Origin: a bacterium
GTDB taxonomy: Bacteria > Sysuimicrobiota > Sysuimicrobiia > Sysuimicrobiales > Humicultoraceae
Assembly: GCA_036004665.1 (NCBI GenBank)
Contig: DASYRG010000008.1
Location: forward strand, 82,754-146,753
Length of the DNA: 64,000 nucleotides
Direction: 5' to 3'
The notes beneath the pieces were generated by a model. That model was not told where the DNA came from. It did not search any database and worked only from the letters and a program-made list of their open reading frames with translations. Positions 568 to 59,440 of this stretch are shown one piece after another; positions within the stretch are counted from its first letter, which is position 1, and every line of letters begins with the position of its first letter. A program made the position numbers and the translations under genes.

Positions 568-1875
568 ATGAGGCCGCATCACCCTGTTGTGACGATTGAG
601 GACCTCTCTCAGCATGTCGGGGAGACGGTGGAGCTGCGTGGGTGGCTGGTCACGCGCCGCAGCAGTGGGGGAATCCACTTTCTCCTCCTGCGCGATGGCA
701 CGGGTGTCGTGCAGGCGGTCGTCTCGGGGAAAGGGGCCGACGTGGACGCCTTCGGGCGGGCCGATCACCTCCCCCAGGAGAGCAGCCTCATCGTCACAGG
801 GACGGTGCGGGCTGACCGGCGTGCGCCCGGCGGGGTGGAGCTGACCGTGCGGGCGCTCACGCCGCTCCAGGAAGCTGCCCCCTACCCGATCACGCCCAAG
901 GAGCACGGGGTGGAGTTCCTGATGGACCACCGCCACCTCTGGCTTCGGTCGCCGCGCCAGTGGGCGATCATACGCGTGCGCGCGGAAGTCATCCGCGCCG
1001 CCACGGCCTTCCTCGAGGGCGAGGGCTTCCTGCGCGTCGACACCCCGATCCTCACACCGGCGTCCGTGGAGGGGACCACCACGCTCTTCGACGTGGACTA
1101 CTTCGACCTGGGGAAGGCCTACCTGGCCCAATCCGGCCAACTCTACAACGAGGCGACGATCGCGGCGTTCGGCCGCGTCTACTGTTTCGGCCCCACCTTT
1201 CGCGCCGAAAAGAGCAAGACCCGCCGCCACCTCATCGAGTTCTGGATGCTCGAGCCGGAGGTCGCCTACCTCGGCCTGGAGGGCTACATGGACCTGGCGG
1301 AGTCGTTCGTCGCCGCCATTGTCCGTGACGTGGTGGCTCACCGCGCCCGCGAGTTGGACACCCTCGGCCGGGATCCAGAACCCTTACGGCGGGTGCTCCC
1401 GCCCTTTCCCCGGATCACCTACGACGAGGCCAGGGAGATCCTAACCTCGGCCGGCAAACCGATCCCCTGGGGGGAGGACTTCGGCGGCGACGAAGAGACG
1501 GTCATCTCCGCGCGTTTCGATCGACCCGTGTTCGTCCATCGCTATCCCGCGCGCGCCAAGGCATTCTACATGGAGCCTGACCCGGATCGGCCGGAGGTGG
1601 TGCTCTCGGCGGACCTGCTAGCCCCGGAAGGGTACGGAGAGATCATCGGCGGCGGCGAGCGCATCTGGGATTTGGCGCTGCTGGAACGGCGGCTGGCCGA
1701 GTGGGGGCTGCCGCGGGAGACCTACGAGTGGTACCTCGACCTGCGCCGCTACGGCGCTGTGCCGCACTCCGGCTTCGGTCTCGGCATCGAGCGCACCGTG
1801 GCCTGGATCTGCGGCCTCGAACACATTCGTGAGGCCATTCCTTTTCCCCGGCTGATCAACCGGATTACTCCCTAG
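568..1875 (+). CDS. asnS: asparaginyl-tRNA synthetase (class II aaRS)
   Basis: 435 aa; motifs [24 protein letters not shown] and GGGERIWD with C-terminal [12 protein letters not shown] are typical of AsnRS. Confidence 0.85.
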
Positions 1876-1996
1876 AGCTGCAGACCACACCTACGCAAAC
1901 CGAACGATGGGATGCGGTTTGCTCCGGTGTGGCCCGCAGCCACACGGAGTACGTCCGCTGATGAGTCGTGGAAGCGGATGACACCCGGCCTGTGTG

Positions 1997-2066
1997 AGAG
2001 CAGAAACGCACGCCCTCAGAAACTGTATCCCGTAGTTCGGTTTAAGAGGGCGTGCGTTTCTGCTCT
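1997..2066. repeat. nested-hairpin intergenic element, copy A: perfect 21-bp outer stem (AGAGCAGAAACGCACGCCCTC) around a 28-nt loop carrying the conserved core in reverse orientation; lies between the convergent asnS and 2070..2663 genes and probably acts as a bidirectional terminator
   Basis: Inverted repeat 1997-2017 / 2046-2066; loop AGAAACTGTATCCCGTAGTTCGGTTTAA is the reverse complement of the core seen in copies B, C and D. Confidence 0.7.
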
Positions 2067-2069
2067 TGC

Positions 2070-2663
2070 TTAGGTCGGATTCTCGTCCGCCTCCGGAGAC
2101 CCCACCGCCGCTGAACCGGGTTCTGAGGGTTCCAGGTCGGCGAGCAGAGTCGACCAGGCAGCGGCGAGCTCTTCCTCCGACGCATACGGCTGAGCCGTCA
2201 CCGCCCCTTCGCTCTCCCGCGTGACGATGACGCCCGCCGCCGCCTCAAGCGCCCGCAGCTCTCCGGCATCGACCGGGGGCTCCCCGTTCGTCTGCGCGTC
2301 TTCCAGGGCTTCGCGCGTCCGCCGCGCAATCTCTGCGCCGTCGCGCAGCAGGGCGGCCCAGAGGTGCCCCTCTTCGACCTCTGGCCCCGCGACCTCGTCG
2401 GCACCCTCCTGCGCCAGCGCCAAGAGGATGGGGGCGAGGGATCGGTCGAATTGACGCGGCGTCGTTTCCGGTGCCGCCTCCATCGTCGTGGGAGTGCGCC
2501 GGCGCCGGGTCCGCGCGCGCTTCGCCGGCGTCGCGCCCTCCTTGCCGAGCGCGGTGCGGGTCCGGGCCGGCAGATGGGCGATCGTCCGTTTCCGTTTCGC
2601 CGCCCTGATCGCTTTCTTGACGTTCGTGCGGGCTGCCGCCCGCTGTTTTCTGGTGGCCATCAC
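2070..2663 (-). CDS. hypothetical protein with a strongly basic N-terminus (ATRKQRAAARTNVKKAIRAAKRKR...) and an acidic C-terminal half; possibly a nucleic-acid-binding protein
   Basis: 197-aa ORF; good RBS (GAGGGAGGGTG) upstream of the ATG on the minus strand; ends 3 nt from hairpin element A. Confidence 0.6.
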   Translation of the reverse strand: MMATRKQRAAARTNVKKAIRAAKRKRTIAHLPARTRTALGKEGATPAKRARTRRRRTPTTMEAAPETTPRQFDRSLAPILLALAQEGADEVAGPEVEEGHLWAALLRDGAEIARRTREALEDAQTNGEPPVDAGELRALEAAAGVIVTRESEGAVTAQPYASEEELAAAWSTLLADLEPSEPGSAAVGSPEADENPT

Positions 2664-14226: not shown

Positions 14227-15518
14227 TGACGCAGCGGACTGAACACACCATCCTGCCGAACGGCATCCAGGTGATCACCGAGACGATGCCCGCGGTGCGC
14301 ACGGCCGCGGTGGGCATTTGGATCGGCACCGGCTCGCGCTACGAGGAGGCGGCCCTGGGGGGGATCTCCCACTTCCTCGAACACCTCTTCTTTAAAGGCA
14401 CGGAGAGTCGCACCGCCCTCGACATCGCCAGCGCGGCTGACGCCATCGGCGCGCAGCTCAACGCCTTCACCGACCGGGAAGGCACCGTCCTCTACGGCAA
14501 GGCGCTGTCGAACCACCTTCCCGCCGTCCTCGACCTGATGGCGGACATGCTGCTGCGCGCCTCCCTGGACCCCGAGGCCCTGGAGCGGGAGCGGCAGGTG
14601 ATCCTCGAAGAGATCAAGATGTATGAGGACTCACCGGACGAGCTCGTGCAGGATCTCTTTGCCCAGACCGTCTGGAACGGCCATCCCCTCGGCCGGCCGG
14701 TCATCGGCACGGTGGACACGGTGCGCGCCCTCACGCGCGAGGACTTCCTGCGCTACCGGGCGCAGCACTACCGGCCGGGCAACGTCATCGTGGCCGTGGC
14801 CGGCGACGTCCGCCACGCCGAGGTCGTCGGGCTGGTGGCCGAACGTCTCGGAGCGTGGGAGGGGGCGGTCCCCGCACGGCCAACCGAGCGTCCTTTGGTC
14901 CGTCCCGATATCTCGCTGCGCCCTAAAGAGACTGAGCAGGTGCACCTCACCGTGGGCACGCGGGGACTGCCGCAGGGAGACGAAGGGCGATACGTCATGG
15001 CTATCCTCGACGGAATCCTGGGCGGGGGGATGTCCAGCCGGCTCTTTCAGGAGATCCGGGAGCGGCGCGGCCTGGTGTACACCATTACCACCTACCACTC
15101 CGCCTACCGGGATGCCGGGCTCTTCGTCGTCTATGGGGCGATGAGCCCGCCGGCGGCGCCGCAGGTGACCTCGCTCATCATGGAAGAGTTCGAGAAGATC
15201 AAGGACCGGATTCCCCCCGAGGAACTGAGCCGGGCCAAGGAGTCCCTCAAGGGCGTGATCATGCTGTCGCTGGAGTCCACTGACAGCCGGATGTTCAACC
15301 TGGCGCGCTCGCAGATCTACTTCGGCCGGCAGTTCACCCTTGATGAGATCCTGGCGCGCATCGACGCGGTCACCGCCGAGCAGGTGCAGGCGATGGCGGC
15401 GGAGACCCTCATCCCGGAGCGGCTGGCGCTGGCGGCCATCGGACCGTTCCGCCCTGACGGATCCCTCTCCCGCACACTCACGCAGGCCTTCCGCGCGGAA
15501 AGCGCACTCACCGCGTAA
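14226..15518 (+). CDS. M16-family zinc peptidase (MlpA/YmxG-like)
   Basis: 430 aa; HFLEHLFFKGT inverted zincin motif; ATG overlaps the pnp stop (ctgATGa). Confidence 0.85.
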   Translation: MTQRTEHTILPNGIQVITETMPAVRTAAVGIWIGTGSRYEEAALGGISHFLEHLFFKGTESRTALDIASAADAIGAQLNAFTDREGTVLYGKALSNHLPAVLDLMADMLLRASLDPEALERERQVILEEIKMYEDSPDELVQDLFAQTVWNGHPLGRPVIGTVDTVRALTREDFLRYRAQHYRPGNVIVAVAGDVRHAEVVGLVAERLGAWEGAVPARPTERPLVRPDISLRPKETEQVHLTVGTRGLPQGDEGRYVMAILDGILGGGMSSRLFQEIRERRGLVYTITTYHSAYRDAGLFVVYGAMSPPAAPQVTSLIMEEFEKIKDRIPPEELSRAKESLKGVIMLSLESTDSRMFNLARSQIYFGRQFTLDEILARIDAVTAEQVQAMAAETLIPERLALAAIGPFRPDGSLSRTLTQAFRAESALTA

Positions 15519-15530
15519 GGGTCTCTAAGA

Positions 15531-15601
15531 GAGGATGAGAGCCGCACCCTCGGAAACCGAACTACAGGATCACGGTTTCCTTGGGTGCGGGTCTCATCCT
15601 C
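15531..15601. repeat. nested-hairpin element copy B: 19-bp outer stem with one mismatch, inner 8-bp stem GGAAACCG/CGGTTTCC, 13-nt apical loop AACTACAGGATCA
   Basis: Read directly; begins 13 nt after the M16 peptidase stop. Confidence 0.7.
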
Positions 15602-15655
15602 GCGTACAAATCCTCACCCGGTGGGCCCGTTACGAGCGGGGATCGCGTGCGTGTG

Positions 15656-15724
15656 AGGCTGAGGAACCCATCCGAGGAAACCGTGATCCTGTAGTTCGGT
15701 TTCGGAGGATGGGTTCCTCAGCCT
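15656..15724. repeat. nested-hairpin element copy C: 18-bp perfect outer stem of unrelated sequence; the core is the reverse complement of copy B's, matching 28 of 29 positions
   Basis: Read directly; ends 17 nt before the dapB GTG. Confidence 0.7.
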
Positions 15725-15740
15725 GAGAGGTACGTTCGCC

Positions 15741-16547
15741 GTGACGGACGCGATCCGGGTGGTTGTGAGTGGTGCGGCGGGGAGAATGGGGCGCGCGGCC
15801 GTGCGCGCCATCGCCGGCAGCGCCGATCTGGCGCTCACTGGTGCGGTGGGACGCAGCCGGGCGGTCGGCGACGATGCCGGCCTGACCGCGGGGCTCTCCG
15901 CTCTCGACGTCCGGATCGACGACGACCTTGCATCCCTGCTGGATCGCACGCGCCCCGACGTGCTGGTGGAGTTCGCCCCAGGCGCCGCGGCGGCGGCGCA
16001 TGCGCGGACGGCCATTCCGCGGGGCGTGCGTCCGGTGATCGGCGCGACCGGCCTCGCCCCCCAGGACGTTCAGGATCTCACAGGGCTGTGCGAAGCCCGC
16101 CGGGTCGGCGCCGTCATCGCCCCCAACTTCGCTCTGGGGGCGGTCCTGATGATGCAGTTCGCGCGCGCCGCCGCGCGGCACTTTCCCCACGTTGAAGTGA
16201 TCGAACTCCACCATGACCGTAAGCGCGACGCCCCCTCCGGCACCGCTGCCAAGACCGCGCAGATGATTGCCGACGCCCGGGGCGAGGCGCCAGTGCCGAA
16301 GGTCCAGGAGGAAGAGACCGCGGCGGGGGCGCGGGGCGGGACGGTGGGCGGCGTGCGGGTGCACAGCGTCCGCCTGCCCGGGCTGGTCGCCCATCAGGAG
16401 GTCATCTTCGGCGGTGCTGGCCAGGCCCTGACCATCCGCCATGACTCCTTCAACGAAGAGTCCTTCATGCCAGGGTTGCTGCTGGCGATCCGCCGCGTGA
16501 TGTCCTTGAGCAGCCTGGTCTACGGCCTGGAGAACCTGCTCGAGTAG
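15741..16547 (+). CDS. dapB: 4-hydroxy-tetrahydrodipicolinate reductase
   Basis: 268 aa; IRVVVSGAAGRMGRA NAD(P)-binding N-terminus; GTG start. Confidence 0.85.
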   Translation: MTDAIRVVVSGAAGRMGRAAVRAIAGSADLALTGAVGRSRAVGDDAGLTAGLSALDVRIDDDLASLLDRTRPDVLVEFAPGAAAAAHARTAIPRGVRPVIGATGLAPQDVQDLTGLCEARRVGAVIAPNFALGAVLMMQFARAAARHFPHVEVIELHHDRKRDAPSGTAAKTAQMIADARGEAPVPKVQEEETAAGARGGTVGGVRVHSVRLPGLVAHQEVIFGGAGQALTIRHDSFNEESFMPGLLLAIRRVMSLSSLVYGLENLLE

Positions 16548-16564
16548 GCCCCGACCGTCTCTCT

Positions 16565-17677
16565 ATGCGTATCGAGCGCATCGAGGTCTACGGCTACGAC
16601 CTCTCCTATGCACACGGAGAGTACGTCATGTCGGGTGGCCGCGCCGTCAGCCGTCTGCCCTCGACCGTCGTCCGCGTCCTGACCGATACGGACGCGGAAG
16701 GGTATGGGGAGGTCTGCCCGCTGGGTCCCACCTACCTACCCTCGTTTGCCGAAGGGGCGCGGGCGGCCCTGCGCGTGCTGGCTCCCGCGCTGATCGGCGC
16801 CGACCCCCTCAACCTGGCGGCCGTCGGCGAGCGGCTCGACCACGCGCTGCGCGGGCACGAGTATGCGAAGAGTCCGCTGGACGTCGCCTGCTGGGACATT
16901 CTTGCCAGAACCGCGGGCCAGCCGCTGACGACACTGCTGGGCGGGGTGCGGCAGACCCAGTTCGCTCTCTACATGGCCGTCCCGCTCGGTCCGGCGGAGG
17001 CGATGGTCGAGTACGTCCTCGCCCGCCGGGCTGAGGGCATCCACCGGTTTCAGTTGAAGGTTGGGGCGGATCCACGGGAGGACGCCGCGAGGGTCCGGCG
17101 CGTCGTGGAGGCAACCCAGGAAGACGACGTGGTCATCGCCGACGCCAACGGTGGGTGGCGGCTCAACGACGCACTCGTCGCGGCGCGGTTGCTTGAACCG
17201 ATGTCTCGCGTCTACCTGGAGCAGCCCTGTCCCACACTCGAAGAGTGCGCGTGGATCCGGTCGATCACCTCTCTGCCGATGATCTATGATGAGATCGTCA
17301 CCGATGTCCCCTCGATGCTGGCCGTCGTGCGGGAGGGTGGAGGCGGAGGGATCAATCTCAAGATCAGCCGGGTCGGTGGCCTCAGCCGGGCGCGAGTGCT
17401 CCGTGATCTGGCTGAAGCCCTGGGCATCGCGTTGACGATCGAGGATTCCTGGGGCGGGGACGTGGTGACCGCGGCAGTGAGCCATCTGGCCGCGACGGTG
17501 AGGCCGGAGGCGCTCTTTACCGTCTCCTTCATGAACGACTGGGTGAACGAGCATGTCGCCGGCTATCAGCCGCGCTCCCGGGGCGGCTTTGGCGCCCCTC
17601 CGGCGCAGCCCGGACTGGGTATTGACGTCGACCGGTCCGTTCTGGGCGCGGCACTCTTCGTCACTCCGGACATCTGA
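16565..17677 (+). CDS. enolase-superfamily enzyme (mandelate racemase / muconate lactonizing enzyme family; possibly a dipeptide epimerase-like protein), embedded in the dap operon
   Basis: 370 aa; MR/MLE N-terminal and TIM-barrel regions with the expected K and D/E metal ligands (KVGADP, IADANGGW, LEQPC). Confidence 0.7.
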   Translation: MRIERIEVYGYDLSYAHGEYVMSGGRAVSRLPSTVVRVLTDTDAEGYGEVCPLGPTYLPSFAEGARAALRVLAPALIGADPLNLAAVGERLDHALRGHEYAKSPLDVACWDILARTAGQPLTTLLGGVRQTQFALYMAVPLGPAEAMVEYVLARRAEGIHRFQLKVGADPREDAARVRRVVEATQEDDVVIADANGGWRLNDALVAARLLEPMSRVYLEQPCPTLEECAWIRSITSLPMIYDEIVTDVPSMLAVVREGGGGGINLKISRVGGLSRARVLRDLAEALGIALTIEDSWGGDVVTAAVSHLAATVRPEALFTVSFMNDWVNEHVAGYQPRSRGGFGAPPAQPGLGIDVDRSVLGAALFVTPDI

Positions 17678-17717
17678 CGCAAGGAACGCTTCGAACGCGC
17701 AGCGAAATTTCGAGAGA

Positions 17718-18782
17718 ATGAGCGGGGAAGGATTCACGGTCGCCGTCGTCGGCGCCACCGGCGTGGTCGGGAGTGAGATGGTCCGGGTTCTCTCCCAACG
17801 CGGTTTTCCCGTCAGACGTCTCCGCCTCTTCGCGACCGCGCGCTCTGCCGGTCGACACCTCCCCTTCGGGGATCACGACCTCGAGATTGAAGAGACCTCG
17901 GCGGCGGCCCTGGCCGGCCATGAGGTCGTGCTCTTCGCCGGAGGGGACGATGCCAGCCGGCAGTTCGCCTGGACCGTCGCCGACGGCGGCGGGGTGGCGA
18001 TCGACAACTCTTCTACCTGGCGGCTCGACCCCCGCGTGCCGCTCGTCATCCCCGAAGTGAACGCGCACCTCCTCGCCACCCACCAGGGGGTCATCGCCAA
18101 CCCCAACTGCACGGCCGCCACGATCGTGATGGTGCTCGCGCCGCTGCATCGCGCGGCCGGCATCAAGCGAGCGGTGGTGGCGACCTACCAATCGGTCTCC
18201 GGAGGCGGCGCCGACAACGTGCGCGCCCTGCTCGAGCAGACCCGGGCGCTGCTGGACGAGGCGGACGCCCTCCAGTTCGGCCCCCTAGACCGGATCGAGC
18301 GGGCGGCGGGCACGCCGCACCCGCTCGCCTTCAATGTCCTGCCGCAGTGGAAGTGGGGCCCAGACGGGTACACCGAAGAGGAGCTGAAGATCGTCGTCGA
18401 GACCCACAAGATCATGGACGCCGACTTTCCGGTGCTGCCCACCACCGTGCGGGTGCCGGTGCTGGTCGGCCACACCGTGGCGATGCATCTGGACCTGGAG
18501 CGTCCACTCCCGCCCGAAGAGGCGCGCCGGATTCTGGCGGCGAGTGCGGGAGTCGAAGTGGTGGACGCCCCCGAAGCGGGCCGATTCCCCACACCGGTGC
18601 TCAGCGCGGGGCGGGACGAGGTGCTGGTGGGACGCATCCGCCGCGATCCCACCTCGGCCACCGGGCTGCTCCTGGTCGCCGCGGGCGACAATCTGCGCAA
18701 GGGCGCCGCCCTCAACGCGGTGCAGATTGCGGAAGCCCTCGTGGCTCAGCGGCTGCTGCCGCGGGCACCGGCACGGGCGTGA
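17718..18782 (+). CDS. asd: aspartate-semialdehyde dehydrogenase
   Basis: FTVAVVGATGVVGSEMVRVL N-terminus, NPNCTA active-site Cys; ATG at 17718; the ORF-track start at 17553 overlaps the enolase-family gene. Confidence 0.9.
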   Translation: MSGEGFTVAVVGATGVVGSEMVRVLSQRGFPVRRLRLFATARSAGRHLPFGDHDLEIEETSAAALAGHEVVLFAGGDDASRQFAWTVADGGGVAIDNSSTWRLDPRVPLVIPEVNAHLLATHQGVIANPNCTAATIVMVLAPLHRAAGIKRAVVATYQSVSGGGADNVRALLEQTRALLDEADALQFGPLDRIERAAGTPHPLAFNVLPQWKWGPDGYTEEELKIVVETHKIMDADFPVLPTTVRVPVLVGHTVAMHLDLERPLPPEEARRILAASAGVEVVDAPEAGRFPTPVLSAGRDEVLVGRIRRDPTSATGLLLVAAGDNLRKGAALNAVQIAEALVAQRLLPRAPARA

Positions 18783-18819
18783 TCGAGCAGGGGAGGAGAG
18801 TCAAAGGACTGCCGTTCGC

Positions 18820-20067
18820 ATGTCCGTGATCGTCCAGAAATACGGCGGCGTGCTGCTTGCCACGCCGCAGGGACGGGAGGAGGTGGCCGCCCAGGTCATC
18901 GCCACCCGCAGCGAGGGCGCTCGGGTAGTGGTTGTGGCCTCCGCCATCGGTCGTGAAGGAGATCCGTACGCGACCGACACGCTGCTCGGTCTGGCCACCC
19001 AGGTCGACCCGACCGTTTCCCCGCGCACCCTGGACCTGCTGCTCAGCTGCGGCGAGATCATCTCCACGGCCCTTCTGGCGCACACGCTCGAGCGCGCGGG
19101 CGCCCCAGCGGTGGCGCTGACCGGGTTGCAGGCCGGGATCCAGACGACCGGGGATTTCGGTGAGGCCCGCATCCTGCACATCGACCCCATCCCGATCCGC
19201 GCCCACCTCGACGGCGGCCGCATCGCCGTGGTGGCCGGGTTTCAGGGGGTGACCGCCGAGCAGGAGGTGACCACGCTGGGGCGCGGCGGCAGCGACACCA
19301 CCGCCATCGCGCTGGGCGCGGCGCTGCCGGCGGATCTGGTGGAGATCTACAAGGACGTGGAAGGAGTCATGACCGCCGATCCCAAAGTTGTGCCAGAGAG
19401 CCGCGTGATCTCGCAGATCTCCTACGATGAGGTCTCGCAGATGGCGGCCCTCGGCGCGCGAGTGATCCATCCGCGCGCGGCAGACATCGGCCGCGAGCAC
19501 GACGTGCGGGTGGTCATCCGCCGGATGGGGTCCGGACGGACCGGAGGCACTCTGTTGGTGCGCGGCCCTGAACTGGGCGTGCCGATCAGCGACGGACGCC
19601 CGGTGATCGCCCTCGCCCATCTGCCCGACGTCGTACAGCTGCGGCTGCGCCGTCCGGCGGGCGAATCCCTCACCCATCCCCTCAAAGCGCTGCGGCGGCT
19701 GGCCGCCGAGGGGATCAGCATCGACCTGATCACGCTGATGTCCGACCTGCTCGCGTTCACGGTCCGGGAAGAGGACTACGAGCGCGCCGTGCGGCTCCTC
19801 CAGGGCGAAGGCTACGAGGCCTCCGTGACCCGTCCCTGCGCCAAGGTCTCGATCATCGGCGCGGGGATGCGCGGCGTCCCCGGCGTGATGGCCAGGGTGG
19901 TGAAGGCGCTCGAGGCGGCGGAGGCGGAGATCCTGCAGACCGCCGATTCGCACACCACCATCTCCTGCCTGGTCCGGCGGGAGCAGATGGAGCGGGCCCT
20001 GCGCGGCCTGCACGACGAGTTCGGGCTGGGTGAGGCGGTGGCGTCGGAACGGGAGGCTCCTGGCTAA
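18820..20067 (+). CDS. lysC: aspartate kinase with C-terminal ACT domains
   Basis: MSVIVQKYGGVLL N-terminus, GRGGSDTTA motif; the ATG at 18820 is in frame with the ORF-track ORF that starts at 18544. Confidence 0.9.
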   Translation: MSVIVQKYGGVLLATPQGREEVAAQVIATRSEGARVVVVASAIGREGDPYATDTLLGLATQVDPTVSPRTLDLLLSCGEIISTALLAHTLERAGAPAVALTGLQAGIQTTGDFGEARILHIDPIPIRAHLDGGRIAVVAGFQGVTAEQEVTTLGRGGSDTTAIALGAALPADLVEIYKDVEGVMTADPKVVPESRVISQISYDEVSQMAALGARVIHPRAADIGREHDVRVVIRRMGSGRTGGTLLVRGPELGVPISDGRPVIALAHLPDVVQLRLRRPAGESLTHPLKALRRLAAEGISIDLITLMSDLLAFTVREEDYERAVRLLQGEGYEASVTRPCAKVSIIGAGMRGVPGVMARVVKALEAAEAEILQTADSHTTISCLVRREQMERALRGLHDEFGLGEAVASEREAPG

Positions 20068-20163
20068 ACAGACGAGGGAGAGGGAGGTCTCCAACGACAG
20101 CGGACAAGCGGCGCTCGAGGGCGCTCGAGGGCCCGCGAACAGAGACGACAGGAGGGGAGCGCG

Positions 20164-21057
20164 ATGATGCAGTTCGGGTACGTGATCACCGCGATGGCGA
20201 CGCCGTTTGACCGGGAGGGGCGGCTCGATGAGCGCCGCGCCGGGGAGCTGGCGCGCCGGCTGGCCGAGCACGGCAGCGAGAGCCTGGTGGTCGCCGGGAC
20301 CACGGGCGAGTCGCCGACCCTCTCCGATCAGGAGAAGATCACGCTCTTCCGCATCGTCAAAGAGGCGGCGGGAGGGCGGGCCAAGGTCATCGCCGGGACG
20401 GGCACCTACGACACCGCCCACTCGATCCACCTGACGAAAGAAGCCGCGCGCGCAGGGGCCGACGGCATCCTGCTGGTCAACCCCTACTACAACCGGCCCA
20501 GCCAGGATGGGCTCTACGCGCACTTCCGTGCGGTCGCTGAATCCACCACGCTGCCTGTGATCCTCTACAACATTCCCGGCCGCACTGGCGTGAACTGCCT
20601 CCCTGATACCGTGGCCCGCCTGGCCGAGGTTCCTAACATCGTGGGGATCAAGGAAGCGACCGGCAGTCTCGACCAGGCCTCCGACGTCCGCAAGCGCACG
20701 CCCCGGGACTTCGTCATCTACTCCGGGGACGACAGCCTGACCCTGCCGATGCTGGCGGTAGGCGGGACGGGGGTGGTGAGCGTCGCCTCCCACCTGGCCG
20801 GCGAGGAGATCGGCAAGATGATCCGCGCGTTCCACGGTGGCGACACCTCCACCGCCCTGGCGCTGCATCTGCGGCTGTGGCCGCTGTTCAAGGTCCTCTT
20901 CATCACGACCAACCCGGTTCCGCTCAAAGCCGCGCTCCGTCTGGCCGGCTTCGACGCGGGCGCCCCGCGGCTGCCGCTCGTGGAGGCCACACCGAAGGAG
21001 CAGGAGCAGATCCGCTCGGTGCTGGCGGAGCTGTCCCTGCTGCCTGTGGCCGTCTGA
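20164..21057 (+). CDS. dapA: 4-hydroxy-tetrahydrodipicolinate synthase
   Basis: 297 aa; VVAGTTGESPTLS, YNIPGRTG and catalytic Lys region GIKEATG. Confidence 0.9.
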   Translation: MMQFGYVITAMATPFDREGRLDERRAGELARRLAEHGSESLVVAGTTGESPTLSDQEKITLFRIVKEAAGGRAKVIAGTGTYDTAHSIHLTKEAARAGADGILLVNPYYNRPSQDGLYAHFRAVAESTTLPVILYNIPGRTGVNCLPDTVARLAEVPNIVGIKEATGSLDQASDVRKRTPRDFVIYSGDDSLTLPMLAVGGTGVVSVASHLAGEEIGKMIRAFHGGDTSTALALHLRLWPLFKVLFITTNPVPLKAALRLAGFDAGAPRLPLVEATPKEQEQIRSVLAELSLLPVAV

Positions 21058-21656
21058 TCGCTCCTCGGAATCCCGCAGCGACACGGCACGCCCTCGAGTC
21101 CCTGCACGGGCAGATTCGCCGCTGCCGGCGTTGCCGGCTGTGGCGGACCCGTCTGAAGGCGGTCCCGGGGGAAGGCCCGGCCACGGCCACGGTGATGCTG
21201 GTGGGGGAAGGCCCCGGCAGACAGGAGGACGAGCAGGGGCGGCCCTTTGTGGGGGCCGCCGGCCGCGTGCTCGACGGGATACTGGCCGCGGCCGGGCTGT
21301 CCCGGGAGGATGTCTACATCACGAACGTCGTGAAGTCTCACCCCACGGAGCGTAAGAGCGGTCCCAACAGGGCGCCCCGCCCCGATGAAGCCGCCGCCTG
21401 CCGGCACTGGCTGACCCAGCAGGTGGCGATCCTGCGGCCGCGTCTGATCGTGACGCTGGGCGCGCATGCGCTGGCGGCCTTCGACCCAACGGCGAGGCTC
21501 TCGGCGGTGCACGGCCGGCCGTTCCAGCGGGAGGGGCTTACCATCCTTCCGCTCTTCCACCCCGCGGTCACCTTTCATGGGGTCTCCCCGGAGACGCTTC
21601 GCGCGGACGCCCGCAAGATTCGCACCCTCCTGGCCCGGCCGAAGGCGAACCGGTGA
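21054..21656 (+). CDS. udg: family-4 uracil-DNA glycosylase (Fe-S type); no ATG/GTG/TTG at the expected N-terminus, so the start is uncertain
   Basis: CRRCRL...GEGPGRQEDEQGRPFVGAAGRVL and HP..RKSG motifs typical of UDG family 4. Confidence 0.7.
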   Translation: MIAPRNPAATRHALESLHGQIRRCRRCRLWRTRLKAVPGEGPATATVMLVGEGPGRQEDEQGRPFVGAAGRVLDGILAAAGLSREDVYITNVVKSHPTERKSGPNRAPRPDEAAACRHWLTQQVAILRPRLIVTLGAHALAAFDPTARLSAVHGRPFQREGLTILPLFHPAVTFHGVSPETLRADARKIRTLLARPKANR

Positions 21657-23389
21657 CCGCCGCACCCACCCGGCGGGGTCCCCCGCGGAGCCGCCGGGCG
21701 CGGCCTCGCGCTCACCAGGAGAGGCCGGCGCCGGCCAAGGGCGGCGGGCAGCTGCAGATCATCCCCCTGGGCGGCGTCGGGGAGATCGGCAAGAACGCCA
21801 CCCTGATCCAATCTGGGAGCGACGCCCTCCTCGTCGACGCCGGACTGCGTTTCCCCGAAGAAGAACTGCTGGGGATCGACCTGGTCATCCCCGACTTCTC
21901 CCTGATCGCCCAGCGGCACGTGCGTCTGCATGGGGTGGTGCTCACGCACGGCCACGAAGACCACATTGGGGCGCTGTCCTTTCTGTTGGACCGTGAACAC
22001 CCCATGGTCGTCGGCTCGCCCCTGACCGTGGCCATGGCAAAGGAGCGCGCCGCCGAGCGCAGTAAGGAGGCGCGCTGGCGACCCACCGCCTACCGCGAGG
22101 AGGTCGGGCTCGGTCCGTTCCAGGTCGAGCTGGTGCGGGTCAGCCACAGCATTCCCGGCGCGGCCGCGGTGGTGGTGCGCGCGGGCGGACGCGCGGTCGT
22201 GGTGAGCGGCGACTTCAAGTTCGATCAGACACCCGTCGACGGACAGCCCACGGACGTGGCCCGGCTGGCGGAGGTGGGGGAGGCTGGCGTGACGGCGCTG
22301 TTGCTGGACAGCACGAACAGCGAGCGACCCGGCTACACGCCGTCGGAGCGGGTGGCGGGGGAGGCGCTGGCCCGCCGGGCCGAGGGGGTGGGCGGACGCA
22401 TCATCGTCACAACGTTTTCCAGCAACGTGCACCGCCTGCAGCAGGTGATCGATCTGGGCGCCGCTATCGGCCGCCGCGTCGGCGTGGTCGGCCGGTCGAT
22501 GGAGCAGAGCGTGCGCATCGCCCAGGCGACCGGCCATCTCAAGGCGCCCAAGGGCGTGCTCGCCACGGTGGAAGAGGTGCGCCAGCTCCCCGACGACCGC
22601 GTGATCATTCTCATCACCGGCAGCCAAGGGGAGCCGCTCTCGGGCCTTTCCCGCGTGGCGGCGGGCACCCACCGCGCCCTCAGCCTCAAGCGCGGGGACA
22701 CCGTTATCTTTTCGGCGTCGGCGATCCCCGGCAACGAGGCGGTGGTCGCGCGGACGATCGACAATCTCTTCCGCCGCGGCGCGGAGGTGATCTACGGGCG
22801 CGAGAGCGGGGTACACGTCTCCGGGCACGGGGCGGCGGAGGAGTTAAAGCTGATGACCAACCTGCTGCGCCCGCAGGTGTTCATCCCGGTGCACGGGGAG
22901 TACCGGATGCTCGTCCAGAACAGCCGCCTGGCGGCGCAGACTGGCATCCCCGCCTCCCGCATTCTTCTGGGGGAGAACGGCACGATCTTCGAGTTCGGGG
23001 CGCACCCCCGCATCTCGGGAAGGCTGCAGGCGGGCAACGTCCTCGTCGATGGGCTGGGTGTGGGCGACGTCGGCGCTATCGTTCTGCGGGACAGGCAGCA
23101 CCTCGCCCGCGATGGGATGGTCATCGTGCTGCTGGGACTGGATCAGGCCACCGGGGAGGTCGTCAGCGGGCCCGACGTGGTCTCCCGCGGCTTCGTCTAC
23201 ATGCGGGAAGCGGAGCCGTTGTTGGCCGAAGTACGCGGGCGTGTCTCCGACACGATCAAGGGCCTGCAGAAGACACAGGGCACCGACTGGGCCGAGGTGA
23301 AGCGCGCCATCCGCGACGACCTGAGCCGGTTTCTCTACGACCGCACCCGCCGGCAACCGATGATTCTCCCTATGGTGGTGGAAGTCTGA
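21653..23389 (+). CDS. rnj: ribonuclease J (metallo-beta-lactamase / beta-CASP)
   Basis: 578 aa; LTHGHEDHIG motif and beta-CASP region; GTG start overlaps the UDG stop; follows dapA as rnjB does in Bacillus. Confidence 0.9.
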   Translation: MTAAPTRRGPPRSRRARPRAHQERPAPAKGGGQLQIIPLGGVGEIGKNATLIQSGSDALLVDAGLRFPEEELLGIDLVIPDFSLIAQRHVRLHGVVLTHGHEDHIGALSFLLDREHPMVVGSPLTVAMAKERAAERSKEARWRPTAYREEVGLGPFQVELVRVSHSIPGAAAVVVRAGGRAVVVSGDFKFDQTPVDGQPTDVARLAEVGEAGVTALLLDSTNSERPGYTPSERVAGEALARRAEGVGGRIIVTTFSSNVHRLQQVIDLGAAIGRRVGVVGRSMEQSVRIAQATGHLKAPKGVLATVEEVRQLPDDRVIILITGSQGEPLSGLSRVAAGTHRALSLKRGDTVIFSASAIPGNEAVVARTIDNLFRRGAEVIYGRESGVHVSGHGAAEELKLMTNLLRPQVFIPVHGEYRMLVQNSRLAAQTGIPASRILLGENGTIFEFGAHPRISGRLQAGNVLVDGLGVGDVGAIVLRDRQHLARDGMVIVLLGLDQATGEVVSGPDVVSRGFVYMREAEPLLAEVRGRVSDTIKGLQKTQGTDWAEVKRAIRDDLSRFLYDRTRRQPMILPMVVEV

Positions 23390-23395
23390 CAGATG

Positions 23396-23467
23396 GGTGG
23401 TGAGCGGATGGGGTCGGGGCCGCCGAACGACGGGATCACGGCGTCCCTCGCCCATCCGCTCACCACC
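23396..23467. repeat. nested-hairpin element copy D: 17-bp outer stem GGTGGTGAGCGGATGGG/CCCATCCGCTCACCACC, a diverged inner stem, apical loop AACGACGGGATCA
   Basis: Core CCGAACGACGGGATCACGG matches copy B at 17 of 19 positions; the outer and inner stems differ from B but still pair. Confidence 0.65.
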
Positions 23468-23574
23468 ACCCGCAGGCTTGACCACCAAAGGGAGAAGGCG
23501 TCAAGCTGCCGAAGTGGACTGACATCGTACGTGAAATCGGCAGAAGTTCGTCGGACCCTTCACCGGAGCAACGT

Positions 23575-24366
23575 ATGGCGCAGATGATCATTCTGGGAAT
23601 CGTTCAGGGTCTCACCGAGTTCCTCCCCGTCAGCAGTTCTGCTCACCTCGTCTTCGCCGAGCACTTTCTCGCGCTGCCGCGGCCGGGCGTGGTCCTGGAG
23701 GCCGTCCTGCACCTGGGCACCGCGCTGTCGGCGGTCGTGCTCTTCTGGCCGGAAGTGCGCCGTCTGGTCCGGGCGGCGATCGGGCGGGATGGGGCCAGCC
23801 TCGACGCAGGGTACCGGCGGCTCGCCTGGCTGCTCCTCGCCGCCACCGCGCTCACGGGTCTGATCGGTCTGATCTTCCAAGGGTCCTTTGAGCGGATGTT
23901 CTCTTCGGTCAGAGGCACCGCGGTGCAGCTGATGATTACCGGCGTCATCTTGCTGCTCGCCCGCGAGCGGGGGAGGCGGCGGATGGTGGACGCCCGGTTC
24001 CCGGACGCGGCCGCCCTGGGTGTGGCGCAGGGGATCTCGATCGTCCCCGGGATCTCCCGCTCCGCTCTCACGATCGCTGTGGGCCTCTGGCGCGGGCTGA
24101 CGCGGGAGGAAGCGGCCCGGTTTTCCTTTCTCATGGCCATCCCAGCGCTCGTGGCCGCCGGACTCTTCGCCCTGCGCGACCTGGGGGAGGCCTTCATCCT
24201 TGGTTACACCCCGGTGGAACTGGCGGTCGGGTTTGCGGTCTCGGCCCTCTTTGGCATGATCGCCATCCGCTGGCTGATGGACTGGATCCGCCGCGGCCGC
24301 CTCCTGCTCTTCGCCGTCTACTGCTGGGCCGCGGGGCTGGCCGTCTTCCTCTGGACGTTCCGTTGA
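23575..24366 (+). CDS. uppP: undecaprenyl-diphosphate phosphatase
   Basis: 263 aa; MAQMIILGIVQGLTEFLPVSSSAHL N-terminus. Confidence 0.9.
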   Translation: MAQMIILGIVQGLTEFLPVSSSAHLVFAEHFLALPRPGVVLEAVLHLGTALSAVVLFWPEVRRLVRAAIGRDGASLDAGYRRLAWLLLAATALTGLIGLIFQGSFERMFSSVRGTAVQLMITGVILLLARERGRRRMVDARFPDAAALGVAQGISIVPGISRSALTIAVGLWRGLTREEAARFSFLMAIPALVAAGLFALRDLGEAFILGYTPVELAVGFAVSALFGMIAIRWLMDWIRRGRLLLFAVYCWAAGLAVFLWTFR

Positions 24367-26723
24367 GGCGATCGGCGGCCCGCCGGCGCAGGCCACGCAC
24401 CACGCGACGCAGCGGCGCCGGGCTGTTGCTGCTGCTGGCAGGCGTGCTGCTGGCGTTGGGATTCCTGCCGCGGGCAACGGGGGCGGCGCTGCTGTTGGGA
24501 CGGTGGCAGCGACTGGCTCTTGGGATCGCGGCTCCCGCGATTCCGCTCCTCACCGTCCTCAGCGGCGTCCTGATCGTCCTGGCCAGAGGGCGCGCGCGGT
24601 TTACCCCCCGGGTGCAGGGACTGCTGCTGGGAGCCGTGGCCGCCGCCGCGGCCGTCCACGCCTTCGTGCCGGCTGGGCGCGAATTCGCGGCCGCCCGGGC
24701 GGGGCAGGGCACCGGCGCAGTGGGGGCGGTGCTGGCATGGGCCGGCCGCGCTCTGGTGGGGGAGGTCGGGCTGTGGGTCCTGATCGTGCTGGTGAGCTCG
24801 ACGGCCGCGTTGAGATTGCTCATGGTGCCGCTTCCCCGCGTCATCGACTGGCTTCTGGCCTCGGGACGGACGGTGGTGTGGAGTGTCAGGGCTCTGCTGC
24901 GGGCTGGGGTGGCGGTGGCCCGACTGGCCCTGGCCGGCGTCGGGGCAGCGGCGCACGGCCTGTACGTGCTGATGAGAATCGGGTCCCGCGAGAGTCTCCG
25001 GGCTGCCCGCGCGATCCGGGCCGCTCAGGCCTCACGCCGAAGACAGGCCGCCGTGTCGCCCGTCGAGGAATCAGAGCTGGCGTTCGAGTCCGCCGGAAAT
25101 GGGGCGCAGGCCGCTGCCCTCGAAGAAGTACTTCTGCCCCTCCCGGCTGCCGTCGCCGTCGGGTCGGGGAGCAGCACGGTGGAGCCCCGCCCGGTGCCTC
25201 CGGCCGCCCGGCGGCGGCCCCAGCAGGCGCGTGAGCGGGTCCATCAGGAGTCGCTCCTGCCCGAACCCCCTTCCGGACCGGAGACGGAGCGGCGCCGAAT
25301 GGGCGCGGTCTATGAGCGCCCGCCCCTCGAGCTGCTCGGCGATCCGCTGCGCGGCACGCGAGCCCCGCGCAGCGATCCGGGCGAGACTGCGCGCGCCCTC
25401 GAACAGACCCTGGCGAGTTTCGGCGTCGAAGCGAAGGTGGTGCACTGGGAGCAGGGACCGGTGGTGACCCGGTTCGAGGTGCACCCGGGCTCCGGCGTGA
25501 AGGTACAACGGATCACCAGCCTCACCAATGACATCGCCTTGAACCTGGCCGCGCCCAGCGTACGTATCGAGGCGCCGATCCCCGGGAAATCGGCCGTCGG
25601 CATCGAGATCCCCAATCAGAAATCGAGCCTCGTGCACATCAAGGAGATCCTCACGCAGCCATCCTTTCAGACGCAGGTCGGCTCGCTGATCGTCGCCCTC
25701 GGCAAAAACCTCACCGGCCAGCCGATCGTCGCGGACCTGACGGAGATGCCGCACTTGCTCATCGCCGGCGCCACCGGCTCGGGCAAGTCGGTGGCGCTCA
25801 ACGCCATCATCGCCAGCCTGCTCTTCCGCTACACTCCCGACGAGGTCCGCTTCGTCATGATCGATCCCAAGCGGATCGAGTTGACCAACTACAATGACAT
25901 CCCGCATCTGCTCATCCCCGTCGTCACCAACCCGCGGGCGGCCGCCGGCGCGCTGAAGGAGATGCTGCGCGTGATGGAGGAGCGCTTCGAGCGCTTCGCC
26001 GCCGCCGGGGTGCGCAACATCCAGGCGTACAACGAACTGGCCGACGCCGACCCGCTGCCCTTCATCGTCATCATCGTGGACGAACTGGCCGACCTGATGA
26101 TGGTGGCGCCGGCCGACTTCGAGGACGTGATCGTCCGCCTAGCGCAGATGACCCGCGCCACCGGCATCCACCTGGTCGTCGCCACGCAGCGCCCCTCGGT
26201 GGACGTGATCACCGGGCTGATCAAGGCCAACATCCCTTCCCGCATCGCCTTCGCCGTCAGCAGCCAGGTAGACAGCCGGACGATCATCGACGGCCCGGGA
26301 GCGGAGAAACTCCTGGGGCGCGGCGACATGCTCTTCCTGCCGATGGGAGCGTCCCGGGCGGTGCGGGCGCAGGGGTCCTTCATCGGGGACGGGGAGATTC
26401 AGGCGCTTGTCGACTGGTGGCGCGGACAGGGCAGACCGACCTTCGACGAGTCCATCCTCGCCGCCGGGCGGCAGTCCGCCGCCGGCGAGGGCGGGGAGGA
26501 CAGCGAGCGCTTCACCGAGGCCGCCCGCATCGTCGTGCGCTCAGGCTATGGATCGGTCTCCCTGCTACAGCGCAAGATGCGCATCGGCTACGTCACCGCC
26601 GCCCGGCTGGTCGATCAGCTGGAGGCGCGCGGCATCGTCGGCCCGGCGCAGGGCAGCAATCCGCGCGAAGTGCTGATGGGACTGGACGCGCTCGAGCGGA
26701 CCATCCGAACCAAAACCCCCTAG
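24363..26723 (+). CDS. ftsK: DNA translocase FtsK/SpoIIIE
   Basis: 786 aa; N-terminal TM helices, motor domain IAGATGSGKSV and C-terminal gamma (winged-helix) domain. Confidence 0.9.
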   Translation: MRRSAARRRRPRTTRRSGAGLLLLLAGVLLALGFLPRATGAALLLGRWQRLALGIAAPAIPLLTVLSGVLIVLARGRARFTPRVQGLLLGAVAAAAAVHAFVPAGREFAAARAGQGTGAVGAVLAWAGRALVGEVGLWVLIVLVSSTAALRLLMVPLPRVIDWLLASGRTVVWSVRALLRAGVAVARLALAGVGAAAHGLYVLMRIGSRESLRAARAIRAAQASRRRQAAVSPVEESELAFESAGNGAQAAALEEVLLPLPAAVAVGSGSSTVEPRPVPPAARRRPQQARERVHQESLLPEPPSGPETERRRMGAVYERPPLELLGDPLRGTRAPRSDPGETARALEQTLASFGVEAKVVHWEQGPVVTRFEVHPGSGVKVQRITSLTNDIALNLAAPSVRIEAPIPGKSAVGIEIPNQKSSLVHIKEILTQPSFQTQVGSLIVALGKNLTGQPIVADLTEMPHLLIAGATGSGKSVALNAIIASLLFRYTPDEVRFVMIDPKRIELTNYNDIPHLLIPVVTNPRAAAGALKEMLRVMEERFERFAAAGVRNIQAYNELADADPLPFIVIIVDELADLMMVAPADFEDVIVRLAQMTRATGIHLVVATQRPSVDVITGLIKANIPSRIAFAVSSQVDSRTIIDGPGAEKLLGRGDMLFLPMGASRAVRAQGSFIGDGEIQALVDWWRGQGRPTFDESILAAGRQSAAGEGGEDSERFTEAARIVVRSGYGSVSLLQRKMRIGYVTAARLVDQLEARGIVGPAQGSNPREVLMGLDALERTIRTKTP

Positions 26724-27979: not shown

Positions 27980-28033
27980 CGTCCGCGTTTGCGGACGGAA
28001 GCGGCCCGGGGGGAGCGATCCCCCCGGGCTTGT
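27980..28033 (+). terminator. two tandem GC hairpins (7-bp then 10-bp stem) followed by UUGUGUGUG, between the substrate-binding and ATPase genes; candidate intra-operon terminator/attenuator
   Basis: Hairpins read directly at about 27980-27997 and 28004-28029. Confidence 0.5.
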
Positions 28034-51486: not shown

Positions 51487-53004
51487 TTGCTCATCGGGGT
51501 GGGGGCGGTCGCGTTCCTCCTTGGATTCTTCCTGCGCAAGAGCGTCGCCGAGGCGCGGATTCAGTCCGCCGAAGTCGCCGCCCGCAAGATCGTCGAAGAG
51601 GCGGCGCGAGAGGCCGAAGCACAAAAACGGGAGGCCGTCGTTGAAGCCAAGGACGAGGCCTTCCGTCTGAAACGAGAGGCTGAGCATGAGATTCGCGAGC
51701 AGCGGGCCGAGATCCAGCGCCTCGAGCGGCGTTTGGTACAGCGTGAAGAGAATCTTGAGCGACGGGGAGAGGTCCAGGAGAAGCGCGAACGGCTGATCGC
51801 GCACAAGGAACAGGAACTGAGCGAGGCGCGCGAACAGGCCGAAGCCCTCAGGGAACAACAGCGGACCGAACTGCAACGCATTTCCGGCCTCACCGCCGAG
51901 GAGGCGCGGGAGCACCTCCTACGCCAGGTCGGGGACGAGGCACGCGGTGACTCCACCGCGCTGATCAAGAAGATCGAATCGGAGGCGCGGGAGGACGGCG
52001 ATCGCCGGGCCCGGGAGATCATCGCCCTGGCCGTCCAGCGCGTGGCCGCCGACCACACCGCCGAAGTCACCGTCTCGGTCGTCCCCCTGCCCAACGAAGA
52101 GATGAAGGGGCGGGTGATCGGCCGGGAGGGGCGCAACATCCGCACGCTGGAGTCCCTCACCGGGGTCGATCTGATCATCGACGACACCCCAGAAGCGGTG
52201 ACCCTCTCCTCCTTCGATCCGGTGCGGCGGGAGATCGCCAGGCTGGCGCTGGAGAAACTGATCGCCGATGGGCGCATCCACCCCGCCCGCATCGAGGAGA
52301 TGGTGGAGAAGTCTCAGCGGGAGCTGGAACAGCGCATCAAGGAGGAGGGGGAGGGGGCCGCCTTCGAGGCCGGCGTGCATGGCCTGCATCCGGAGGAGAT
52401 CAAGATCCTGGGGCGCCTGAAGTTCCGCCACTCCTACGGTCAGAACCTGCTGCAACACTCGGTCGAGGTGGCGTTGCTGGCCGGTCTGCTCGCCACCTAC
52501 CTGGAAGCCGATCCGGCTCTGGCGCGGCGCGCCGGCATCCTGCACGACATCGGCAAGGCCCTCACCCACGAGGTAGACGGCACCCACTCCGCCATCGGGG
52601 TCGATCTCTGCCGCCGCTACCACGAGCCGCCGGAGGTGATCAACGCGATCGAGTACCACCACGGGGACGCCGAGGCCACCTGCGTGGAGGCGATCCTGGT
52701 CGCGGCGGCGGATGCAATCTCAGCCAGCCGTCCCGGCGCGCGCAAAGAGACCCTGGAGATGTTCATCAAGCGCAATCAAAGCCTGGAGCAGCTGGCGACC
52801 TCCTTCCCGGGCGTGGAGAAGGCATTCGCCATCCAGGCGGGACGGGAGGTCCGCGTCATCGTCAAACCGACCGAAGTGGACGACCTCTCCGCCCAGGCCC
52901 TTGCCCGCGACCTGGCTAAGAAGATCGAGGCCGACCTGGAGTACCCGGGACAGATCAAAGTCACGGTCCTGCGGGAGACGCGGGCCATCGAGTACGCCCG
53001 TTGA
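51487..53004 (+). CDS. rny: ribonuclease Y (N-terminal TM, KH and HD domains); the true start is probably about 7 codons upstream, but there is no canonical start codon there
   Basis: Near-colinear with B. subtilis RNase Y ([11 protein letters not shown]..., HD motif LLHDIGKA, ...AVEYAR C-terminus). Confidence 0.9.
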
Positions 53005-58060: not shown

Positions 58061-58063
58061 CCC

Positions 58064-59248: not shown

Positions 59249-59345
59249 ACACTCCTCCGAAAACGTGTGATGGACGACGGCCCCGCGCGTTCTTGGAGCC
59301 ATGATAGCATACCCTTAAAGGATCATTTACCCCGCTCTATCCCGC

Positions 59346-59440
59346 GGAGGGCAGTATCCGCTGGTGCGGGTCCCGGTCTTCAACACCGGTGGCGGGGCCT
59401 CGGGTTCCGCGCTGGGTTCGATTCCCAGGGCCCTCCGCCA
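59346..59440 (+). tRNA. selC: tRNA-Sec (anticodon UCA), selC
   Basis: GGAGGGC acceptor pairs with GCCCTCC-G-CCA; 6-bp D-stem ATCCGC/GCGGGT with 4-nt loop; anticodon loop CUUCAAC; 6-bp long variable arm; T-arm CTGGG-TTCGATT-CCCAG; CCA is encoded. Confidence 0.8.

Follow-up and report, generated by a model that had tools for sequence, protein, structure and literature searches.

ERIC (or IRU) and Correia (NEMIS) elements are intergenic repeats of 100–150 bp that form long mRNA hairpins and affect processing or stability through RNase III or RNase E, and the tetranucleotide of the REP sequences is GTAG. In REPINs, two REPs pair together, and many identical copies are arranged around a master sequence. 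A separate body of work concerns the mutational process, and template switching in RNA hairpins has been documented to introduce compensated changes of several bases at once, to extend stems and to invert loops (PMC8794818). The hairpin described here, copy D, lies in a 64,000-nucleotide stretch of bacterial DNA with a G+C content of about 70% (the window, by which we mean the whole of the stretch analysed), and it belongs to a previously undescribed family of extragenic palindromes with a REP/BIME-like lifestyle. The family adds a well-supported structured repeat, absent from Rfam, from a poorly known uncultured lineage, and its anatomy is unusual for extragenic palindromes, combining a conserved tip, a covarying stem, strict doublet symmetry and a helix that starts from the stop codon.

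Direct reading of the sequence and folding both identify copy D, at positions 23395–23467, as a genuine hairpin, with the order GGGTGGTGAGCGGATGGGG-TC-GGGGCCGCCG-AACGACGGGATCA-CGGCGTCCC-TC-GCCCATCCGCTCACCACC on the + strand (Table 1). Its folding energy is -54.2 kcal/mol on the + strand and -58.6 kcal/mol on the - strand (z = -5.5 and -6.4), none of 200 shuffles folds as well, and no other perfect inverted repeat in the window has arms of 17 nt or more. According to the original prediction, the stem changes of copy D are compensatory, with a single mismatch remaining, and 11 of 13 loop positions are retained. Both statements hold: relative to the consensus GGAAACCG/CGGTTTCC, the inner stem carries two double changes from A-U to C-G or G-C together with one C-T mismatch (or, in the RNAfold structure, a G-U pair plus a bulge), and the loop differs from that of copies B and C, AACTACAGGATCA, at 2 of 13 positions. 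This deviant inner stem is an old, locus-specific state common to the orthologs at loci L120 and L140, and it did not arise recently in the window. Copy D is a solo hairpin with the RNase J gene on one side and uppP/bacA on the other, and its sequence is identical in three further assemblies of the same organism. A non-coding segment directly beyond its outer stem carries the palindrome past the conserved element.

Table 1. Positions of the parts of copy D, of its immediate surroundings and of the other family copies in the window.
Feature	Positions	Strand	Score or remark
D outer stem, 5' arm GGGTGGTGAGCGGATGGGG	23395..23413	+	
D internal loop TC/TC	23414-15 and 23448-49	+	
D inner stem, 5' arm GGGGCCGCCG	23416..23425	+	family consensus GGAAACCG
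D apical loop AACGACGGGATCA	23426..23438	+	
D inner stem, 3' arm CGGCGTCCC	23439..23447	+	
D outer stem, 3' arm GCCCATCCGCTCACCACC	23450..23467	+	
Copy D, whole covariance-model match	23379..23483	- (strand bearing the UGAUCCCGUCGUU 'rev' loop)	59.8 bits, E = 4e-13
RNase J TGA stop codon	23387..23389	+	7 nt ahead of D's first modelled pair
Non-coding segment, inverted near-copy of the last RNase J codons (23369-23394)	23468..23495	+	flank score 13.5 vs control 95th percentile 7.5
Copy A' (newly found), left doublet half	1857..1960	-	55.1 bits, E = 6e-12
Copy A, right doublet half (with A')	1980..2083	+	62.8 bits
Copy B, left doublet half between the M16 peptidase gene and dapB	15514..15617	-	89.8 bits
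Copy C, right half of the B/C doublet	15639..15742	+	97.3 bits

The family was delimited with a covariance model, R1, built from 37 copies aligned in the orientation whose loop reads UGAUCCYGUMGUU; we call this orientation 'rev' and the opposite one, in which the hairpins had initially been described, 'fwd'. Run over the window with filters off, the model finds five copies (A', A, B, C and D), one more than the four listed previously with hairpin spans of about 1985–2078 (A), 15532–15601 (B) and 15646–15734 (C) besides D. The copy that had been missed, A', folds with -67.6 kcal/mol (z = -7.6), and its foot overlaps the TAG stop codon of a class II aminoacyl-tRNA synthetase gene (568–1875, assigned by Pfam). 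Copy A has the AAAC/GTTT inner stem that had been reported for it and the loop AACTACGGGATAC, which in the family alignment resolve into a one-nucleotide loop deletion and a U-G closing pair on the opposite strand. In the sense of the M16 mRNA, copy B has its first modelled pair 13 nt past the TAA stop codon, and copy C has its 3' foot, CCUGAGAGG, 8–11 nt upstream of the GTG start of dapB at 15741. This foot (window 15725–15743) occupies the place expected for the dapB Shine-Dalgarno sequence and resembles one. The copies other than D fold with z between -7.6 and -12.5, and the four longest local inverted repeats of the window are all among the five family copies.

Across related loci, the model yields 45 strong copies at E <= 1e-10 (47 with two weaker ones) from about six related genomes; nine of the 45 match neither of the search patterns and were found by the covariance model alone. 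About 100 of the at least 116 loci in the genome pattern scan are chance matches in coding DNA. Genuine hairpin members are found, among the matches listed, in JBOGSD01, in JACQGZ01 (a groundwater MAG labelled Armatimonadetes) and in three JGI metagenome samples, a taxonomic range that is a lower bound. The contig of the window itself also occurs in JGI 3300036861 and 3300036860 and in the Logan metagenome SRR11742948. The phage, plasmid and viral collections searched contain no family member, the three viral pattern matches being chance matches to the core only. With Rfam 15 at the gathering threshold, only tRNA-Sec was matched in the window and nothing at the hairpin sites; at an E-value threshold, there were only sub-threshold matches to microRNA precursors, which are typical for any long hairpin. 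The tRNA-Sec gene (59346–59436) is part of a selenocysteine cluster at 54669–59436 that also holds selA (54669–56063) and selB (56060–58060), and its presence is coincidental to the hairpins; a SECIS function for them was rejected, as the adjoining stop codons are a mixture of TAA, TAG and TGA and the stems covary and vary in length. From the latter it also follows that the stems are not coding. An RNase Y gene at 51487–53004 has no relation to the hairpins. The window further contains short GC-rich hairpins of another kind, at 28003–28030 and 53407–53439, with stems of 12–15 bp and tetraloops, the former being followed by UUGUGUGUG and looking like a conventional terminator.

The family unit is a hairpin of 75–100 nt. 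Its foot is semi-conserved (GGCUGAGG.../...CCUCAGCC), with a motif, AAGGCUGAGG / CCUCAGCCUU, that is common to many copies though not to all; above it come a mid-stem of about 7 bp that covaries freely, a 2x2 internal loop that reads GA/GA on one strand and UC/UC on the other, an inner stem of 8 bp (GAAACCG/CGGUUUC) and the 13-nt loop UGAUCCYGUMGUU, which is AACKACRGGAUCA on the other strand. The GA/GA tandem of the rev strand is replaced by Watson–Crick pairs in some copies. An origin by insertion of a small core into host terminators, which would now form mutually unrelated outer stems, can be rejected, the stem feet having a common consensus and register. A reading of the variable stems as spacer- or guide-like sequences was set aside: the variable block is just about 7 bp long, and its arms are simple complements of each other.

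In the model alignment of the 45 copies, 96.7% of the cells are paired, both-side changes occur in 21 of the 25 pairs (261 cells) and all 17 outer-stem pairs covary, counts that are non-independent because many of the copies are orthologs. The alignment has a covariation score of 0.656; shuffled columns give 0.17 (0 of 500 shuffles reach the observed value) and slid registers about 0.1. Conservation amounts to 1.62 bits per column in the loop, where it is partly a matter of ascertainment (36 of the 45 copies came from pattern searches in which some of the loop or inner stem was prescribed), 1.5 in the inner stem, 1.0–1.3 in the internal loop, 0.89 in the outer stem and 0.1–0.3 in the flanks; the nine copies found by the model alone have loops that are somewhat more variable but still recognisable. 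The pattern proposed earlier from single copies, a conserved loop on covarying stems, thus extends to the family. Selection on a structured nucleic acid, as proposed with it, is supported by the positive covariation test on the 45 copies and by orthologs that keep the core in a genome with 59% identity at fourfold degenerate sites: purifying selection acts on the apical module, and compensated change keeps the stems paired.

The loop has two main forms, GAUCCYG in 33 copies and GAGCUYG in six, plus intermediates, and the GAGCU form lengthens the helix by one G-U and one U-A pair. Both states recur at orthologous sites of different genomes (e.g., L120 1533–1636 and L129 8529–8632, and L126, L130 and L137), implying either that the change occurred in parallel or that paralogs converted one another. 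The GATC site within the loop, to which attention had been drawn, finds no support as a feature of the family: it is absent from the GAGCUYG, UAAUC and one-base-deletion loops, and the window holds 565 GATC sites where 594 are expected. A significance related to Dam and GATC was dropped on these two grounds, variability in the family and an unskewed count in the window. The near-universal 3' tail of 16S rRNA contains GGAUCAC, and the GUGAUCC of the rev loop in most copies (e.g., 15684–15696) is complementary to it; the GAGCU variants break this match.

The hairpins are positioned with respect to the ends of genes, which were called with a script based on GC3 and cross-checked with database gene calls. 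For 23 of the 24 copies next to a gene, the distance from the stop codon to the first modelled pair is -1 to 14 nt (median 5.5 nt), and the foot motif, YUAAGG or CUAGG, often itself provides the stop codon; the adjoining stops are TAA in 12 cases, TAG in five and TGA in seven. Most hairpins are fwd relative to the mRNA of the gene with the stop codon, with few exceptions. As the helix begins inside the footprint of the terminating ribosome, the hairpin may couple to translation termination; work by Liang, Rudd and Deutscher from 2015 is said to have described such coupling for REPs within 15 nt of stop codons. A copy at L100 2792–2898 is apparently an exception to the after-stop rule, lying between divergent genes for an alcohol dehydrogenase and an acyl-CoA dehydrogenase.

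The copies usually occur as doublets, and in all 18 of these (about 12 independent loci, from L025–L139 and the window), the left hairpin is rev on the - strand and the right one rev on the + strand. Two are in the window, at 1857–2083 and 15514–15742, and 16 elsewhere. The loop-to-loop spacing is 120–130 nt in most, the linker of about 40–55 nt is GC-rich and carries 0.3 bits per column, and the doublets fill the intergenic space. Neither half of a doublet is a copy of the other. The doublet is two-fold symmetric, so that a transcript arriving from either side meets a fwd hairpin first and a rev hairpin second, and since the arrangement is the same between convergent and co-directional genes, it represents a structural unit and not two independently oriented insertions. 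Kissing of the two loops inside a doublet was considered and rejected, the partner loops failing to co-vary (e.g., at L120, L124 and L129). The two strands of the hairpin differ: G-U pairs number 34 on the rev strand and 8 on the fwd strand (binomial p = 7e-5), and in 42 of the 45 copies RNA of the rev strand folds more stably, by 8.6 kcal/mol on average. Both halves of the doublets show the asymmetry, which therefore tracks the orientation of the element and not the strand of the chromosome, and a bias tied to the element's own orientation favours a folded single strand, RNA or single-stranded DNA, over mutation biases linked to replication or transcription.

Comparison with relatives shows how long the elements have been in place. 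RNase J identity between the window and the unclassified MAG JBOGSD01 is 84%, and named taxa (MAGs labelled Armatimonadota, Caldinitratiruptor and Symbiobacteriaceae) reach about 59% at most. JBOGSD01 has B and C at the same M16–dapB junction and D at the same RNase J–bacA junction, and orthologous sets were found for locus I, the M16–dapB junction, in four genomes, for the locus of a gene ending in VLLG* in four and for D in three. Between the window and JBOGSD01, fourfold degenerate sites are 59% and hairpins 74–82% identical, the differences of the latter being mostly concentrated in the mid-stem. The orthologs of B and C show double changes from A-U to G-C and from C-G to G-C or U-A, and C differs from its ortholog by the deletion of one whole base pair. 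In outgroups with 72% RNase J identity, the hairpins are absent: the M16 stop codon overlaps the dapB start, the RNase J–bacA spacer of 87–100 nt has no hairpin, and the outgroup contigs L122, L123 and L143 contain neither matches to the model nor comparable hairpins. This places the gain of the elements in the common ancestor of the organism and its closest relatives, followed by retention under purifying selection, and the overlap of stop and start in the outgroups implies that the B/C doublet split a translationally coupled gene pair. The units were thus gained directly after stop codons and then inherited vertically at fixed sites. Paralogs within a genome average an identity of 0.51 in the outer stem and 0.82 in the core, and the lone near-identical pair (0.97) has homologous flanks and may be a single locus that was assembled twice. 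The paralogs are old, unlike a recently active MITE or REPIN population.

Several observations bear on how the arms came to match. Compared with its ortholog in JBOGSD01 (L120 9390–9495), copy D is 77% identical when inverted and 59% when aligned directly, the flanks are collinear and the model matches lie on opposite strands; in a closer relative (L140 2615–2718, with an RNase J 91% identical), D is oriented as in the window. In 16 of 43 copies, complementarity of the flanks lies above the 95th percentile of controls that combine mismatched loci. At D, the coding arm is constrained, and the non-coding arm must have been either templated from it or selected to match it. On its non-coding side, A' likewise repeats the final codons of the gene upstream as an inverted near-copy (1839–1875 and 1941–1978). 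The inversion of D, the growth of the palindrome and the paired deletion all bear the marks of arm-to-arm template switching or gene conversion. Arm-to-arm template switching probably contributes to the compensation of the stems. The process weakens the original claim that simple homology would not give such a pattern, and the claim goes too far: compensated stem changes can arise in one step by template switching.

Taken to its limit, this process could do without function altogether, with template switching and arm-to-arm conversion keeping the arms of functionless palindromes complementary, extending them and occasionally flipping the loop, so that covariation would arise without selection. 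The loop inversion at D, the extension into flanks that are specific to a locus and in part coding, with adaptation there open to the non-coding arm alone, and the paired deletion of a base pair between copy C and its ortholog all fit, and the mechanism is documented (PMC8794818). We nevertheless consider this very improbable, as the asymmetric 13-nt loop and inner stem are about 82–90% identical among paralogs and orthologs when fourfold degenerate sites reach 59%, and both the G-U strand bias intrinsic to the element and the fixed doublet arrangement would be left unexplained. Another reading takes the family for a non-autonomous mobile element of the REPIN/MITE type, in which the doublet would transpose, a single-strand (HUH/Y1, RAYT-like) or other transposase would read the apical module and the strand-specific hairpin, and conservation would stem from the replication of the element and not from a host function. 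Invariant inverted doublets resemble the two inverted REPs of such elements (PMC3337134), the copies are dispersed and numerous (five per 64 kb) and are present in the lineage and absent from the outgroups at two loci, the strand-specific tolerance of G-T is compatible with recognition of single-stranded DNA, the loop often contains GTAG, and long vertical persistence is known for REPIN–RAYT systems (bioRxiv 10.1101/2022.05.22.493013). Even so, transposition is an unlikely explanation, if one to be taken seriously: near-identical paralogs are missing (outer-stem identity 0.51, the sole pair at 0.97 being perhaps one locus), inspection of the boundaries of 10 doublets revealed no target-site duplication, which age may have erased, the neighbouring genes examined include no transposase, the doublet halves are not mutual copies, the unit is three times as long as a REP and conserved at the apex instead of the foot, and about one-third of the loops have GTCG in place of GTAG.

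The strand asymmetry invites the reading that the elements are independent small RNA genes in rev orientation, transcribed divergently from the doublet linker into stable hairpin RNAs that run antisense across the 3' ends of adjacent genes. The rev strand is indeed the better RNA (in 42 of 45 copies, with 34 G-U pairs vs 8) and has the tandem GA internal loop, the doublets are always divergent with respect to it, and the rev hairpin reaches the stop-codon region of the adjacent gene. The linker, however, is short (about 40–55 nt), GC-rich and poorly conserved (0.3 bits per column), promoter-like sites are absent from 14500–24500, neither orientation has a U-tract downstream, about 80 copies per Mb would be unusual for small RNA genes, and there is no relative in Rfam, all of which makes small RNA genes quite improbable. 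A similarly low probability attaches to ordinary factor-independent, possibly bidirectional, terminators related by descent. Their very stable GC-rich helices and their location after stop codons, often between convergent genes, at plausible boundaries of transcription units would suit terminators, but a terminator scan gave no match at the hairpin sites, neither strand has a U-run (the T content of 29% in the 8 nt past the stem is explained by the complements of stop codons), stems of 35–40 bp capped by 13-nt loops differ from the terminator-like hairpin at 28003–28030 with its 12 bp and tetraloop, termination needs no conserved loop, and the doublet at locus I sits within a formerly translationally coupled gene pair. 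Integron attC sites were also considered and rejected, given that conservation is apical, that housekeeping genes (nusA-infB, pnp, dapB and the RNase J region) flank the copies and that the units form inverted doublets and not co-oriented cassettes.

The account that we favour, and to which we give about an even chance of being right, is that of old REP/BIME-like palindromes under selection on a folded single strand, with an apical recognition module for a putative factor and an action at mRNA 3' ends or in intercistronic regions. The selected form would be one folded strand, of RNA or single-stranded DNA; the apical loop and inner stem would form a putative recognition module for a trans-acting protein, and the long stem would serve as a helix only. 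Compensation may have come in part from arm-to-arm template switching or gene conversion, with selection then filtering the products. The likeliest role would be that of a 3'-UTR or intercistronic RNA element shaping mRNA 3' ends, either by protection from exonucleases or by processing of the RNase III type, and the same hairpins may insulate neighbouring genes. The step from a conserved hairpin to a function at RNA 3' ends is one that we infer, and it meets two difficulties. The favoured strand, rev, is antisense to the gene whose stop codon adjoins the hairpin, so that a sense 3'-UTR hairpin fits only the distal hairpin of a doublet and not solo copies such as D. In addition, D was flipped between species without being lost, which argues against a strictly orientation-dependent role in cis.

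A related account, which as a whole strikes us as rather unlikely, sees the palindromes as lineage-specific gene-end modules maintained by the host, in which a putative protein would read the loop of one strand, the helix would couple termination to the fate of the mRNA 3' end or to insulation, and template switching would continually re-symmetrise and flip the arms and extend them into coding sequence. If true, the family would offer a natural example of a functional structured element whose construction and upkeep by template switching can be seen. Should the apical module have a protein partner, this would be a new RNA–protein or single-stranded DNA–protein recognition pair at gene ends. 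The family is also a natural test case for selection on structure versus template-switch mutation as the source of "covariation", and in this way bears on covariation evidence generally.

Among the systems described earlier, the similarity to those with template-switch RNA hairpins (Monttinen and Loytynoja 2022, PMC8794818) is one of process: multi-base compensated changes, stem extension and full inversion of a loop are seen in both. That work, however, concerns a mutational process in rRNA and microRNA genes and not a repeat family, and a conserved asymmetric loop is unaccounted for there. ERIC/IRU and Correia (NEMIS) elements resemble the present family as intergenic elements that fold into long hairpins, but they are MITEs with TA target duplications and with terminal inverted repeats in all copies; here, no target-site duplication was seen at the doublet boundaries inspected, and the stems covary instead of being conserved.

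The resemblance to REPINs with a RAYT, in Pseudomonas and others (PMC3116915, PMC3337134), lies in the two inverted modules with a spacer, in singlets that are apparent remnants, in long vertical persistence and in the preservation of hairpin pairing. Each module of the present family, unlike those of REPINs, is its own long hairpin, the stems of the partners differ, and there are no near-identical paralogs. With enterobacterial REP/BIME elements, including the BIME-1/RIP doublets, it shares extragenic, high-copy, imperfect palindromes in 3'-UTR or intercistronic positions, often arranged as inverted pairs with a linker and near stop codons; REPs are co-transcribed with genes and act as a folded single strand, as the present hairpins would too. 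REPs are, on the other hand, about 35 nt long with a conserved stem and a GTAG foot, while the unit here is 75–100 nt with apical conservation, a freely varying mid-stem and highly diverged paralogs, and its GTAG is confined to the loop, in about two-thirds of the copies. Of the features by which REPs and REPINs are recognised, a short palindrome (about 20–40 nt) with a GTAG-type foot and a population of near-identical copies were not found, and high-copy inverted doublets were (five copies per 64 kb, all intergenic, and all 18 of the 18 doublets). In its size, its foot and its diverged population, the family thus lacks the defining sequence features of REP/BIME and REPIN elements, but it shares their lifestyle.
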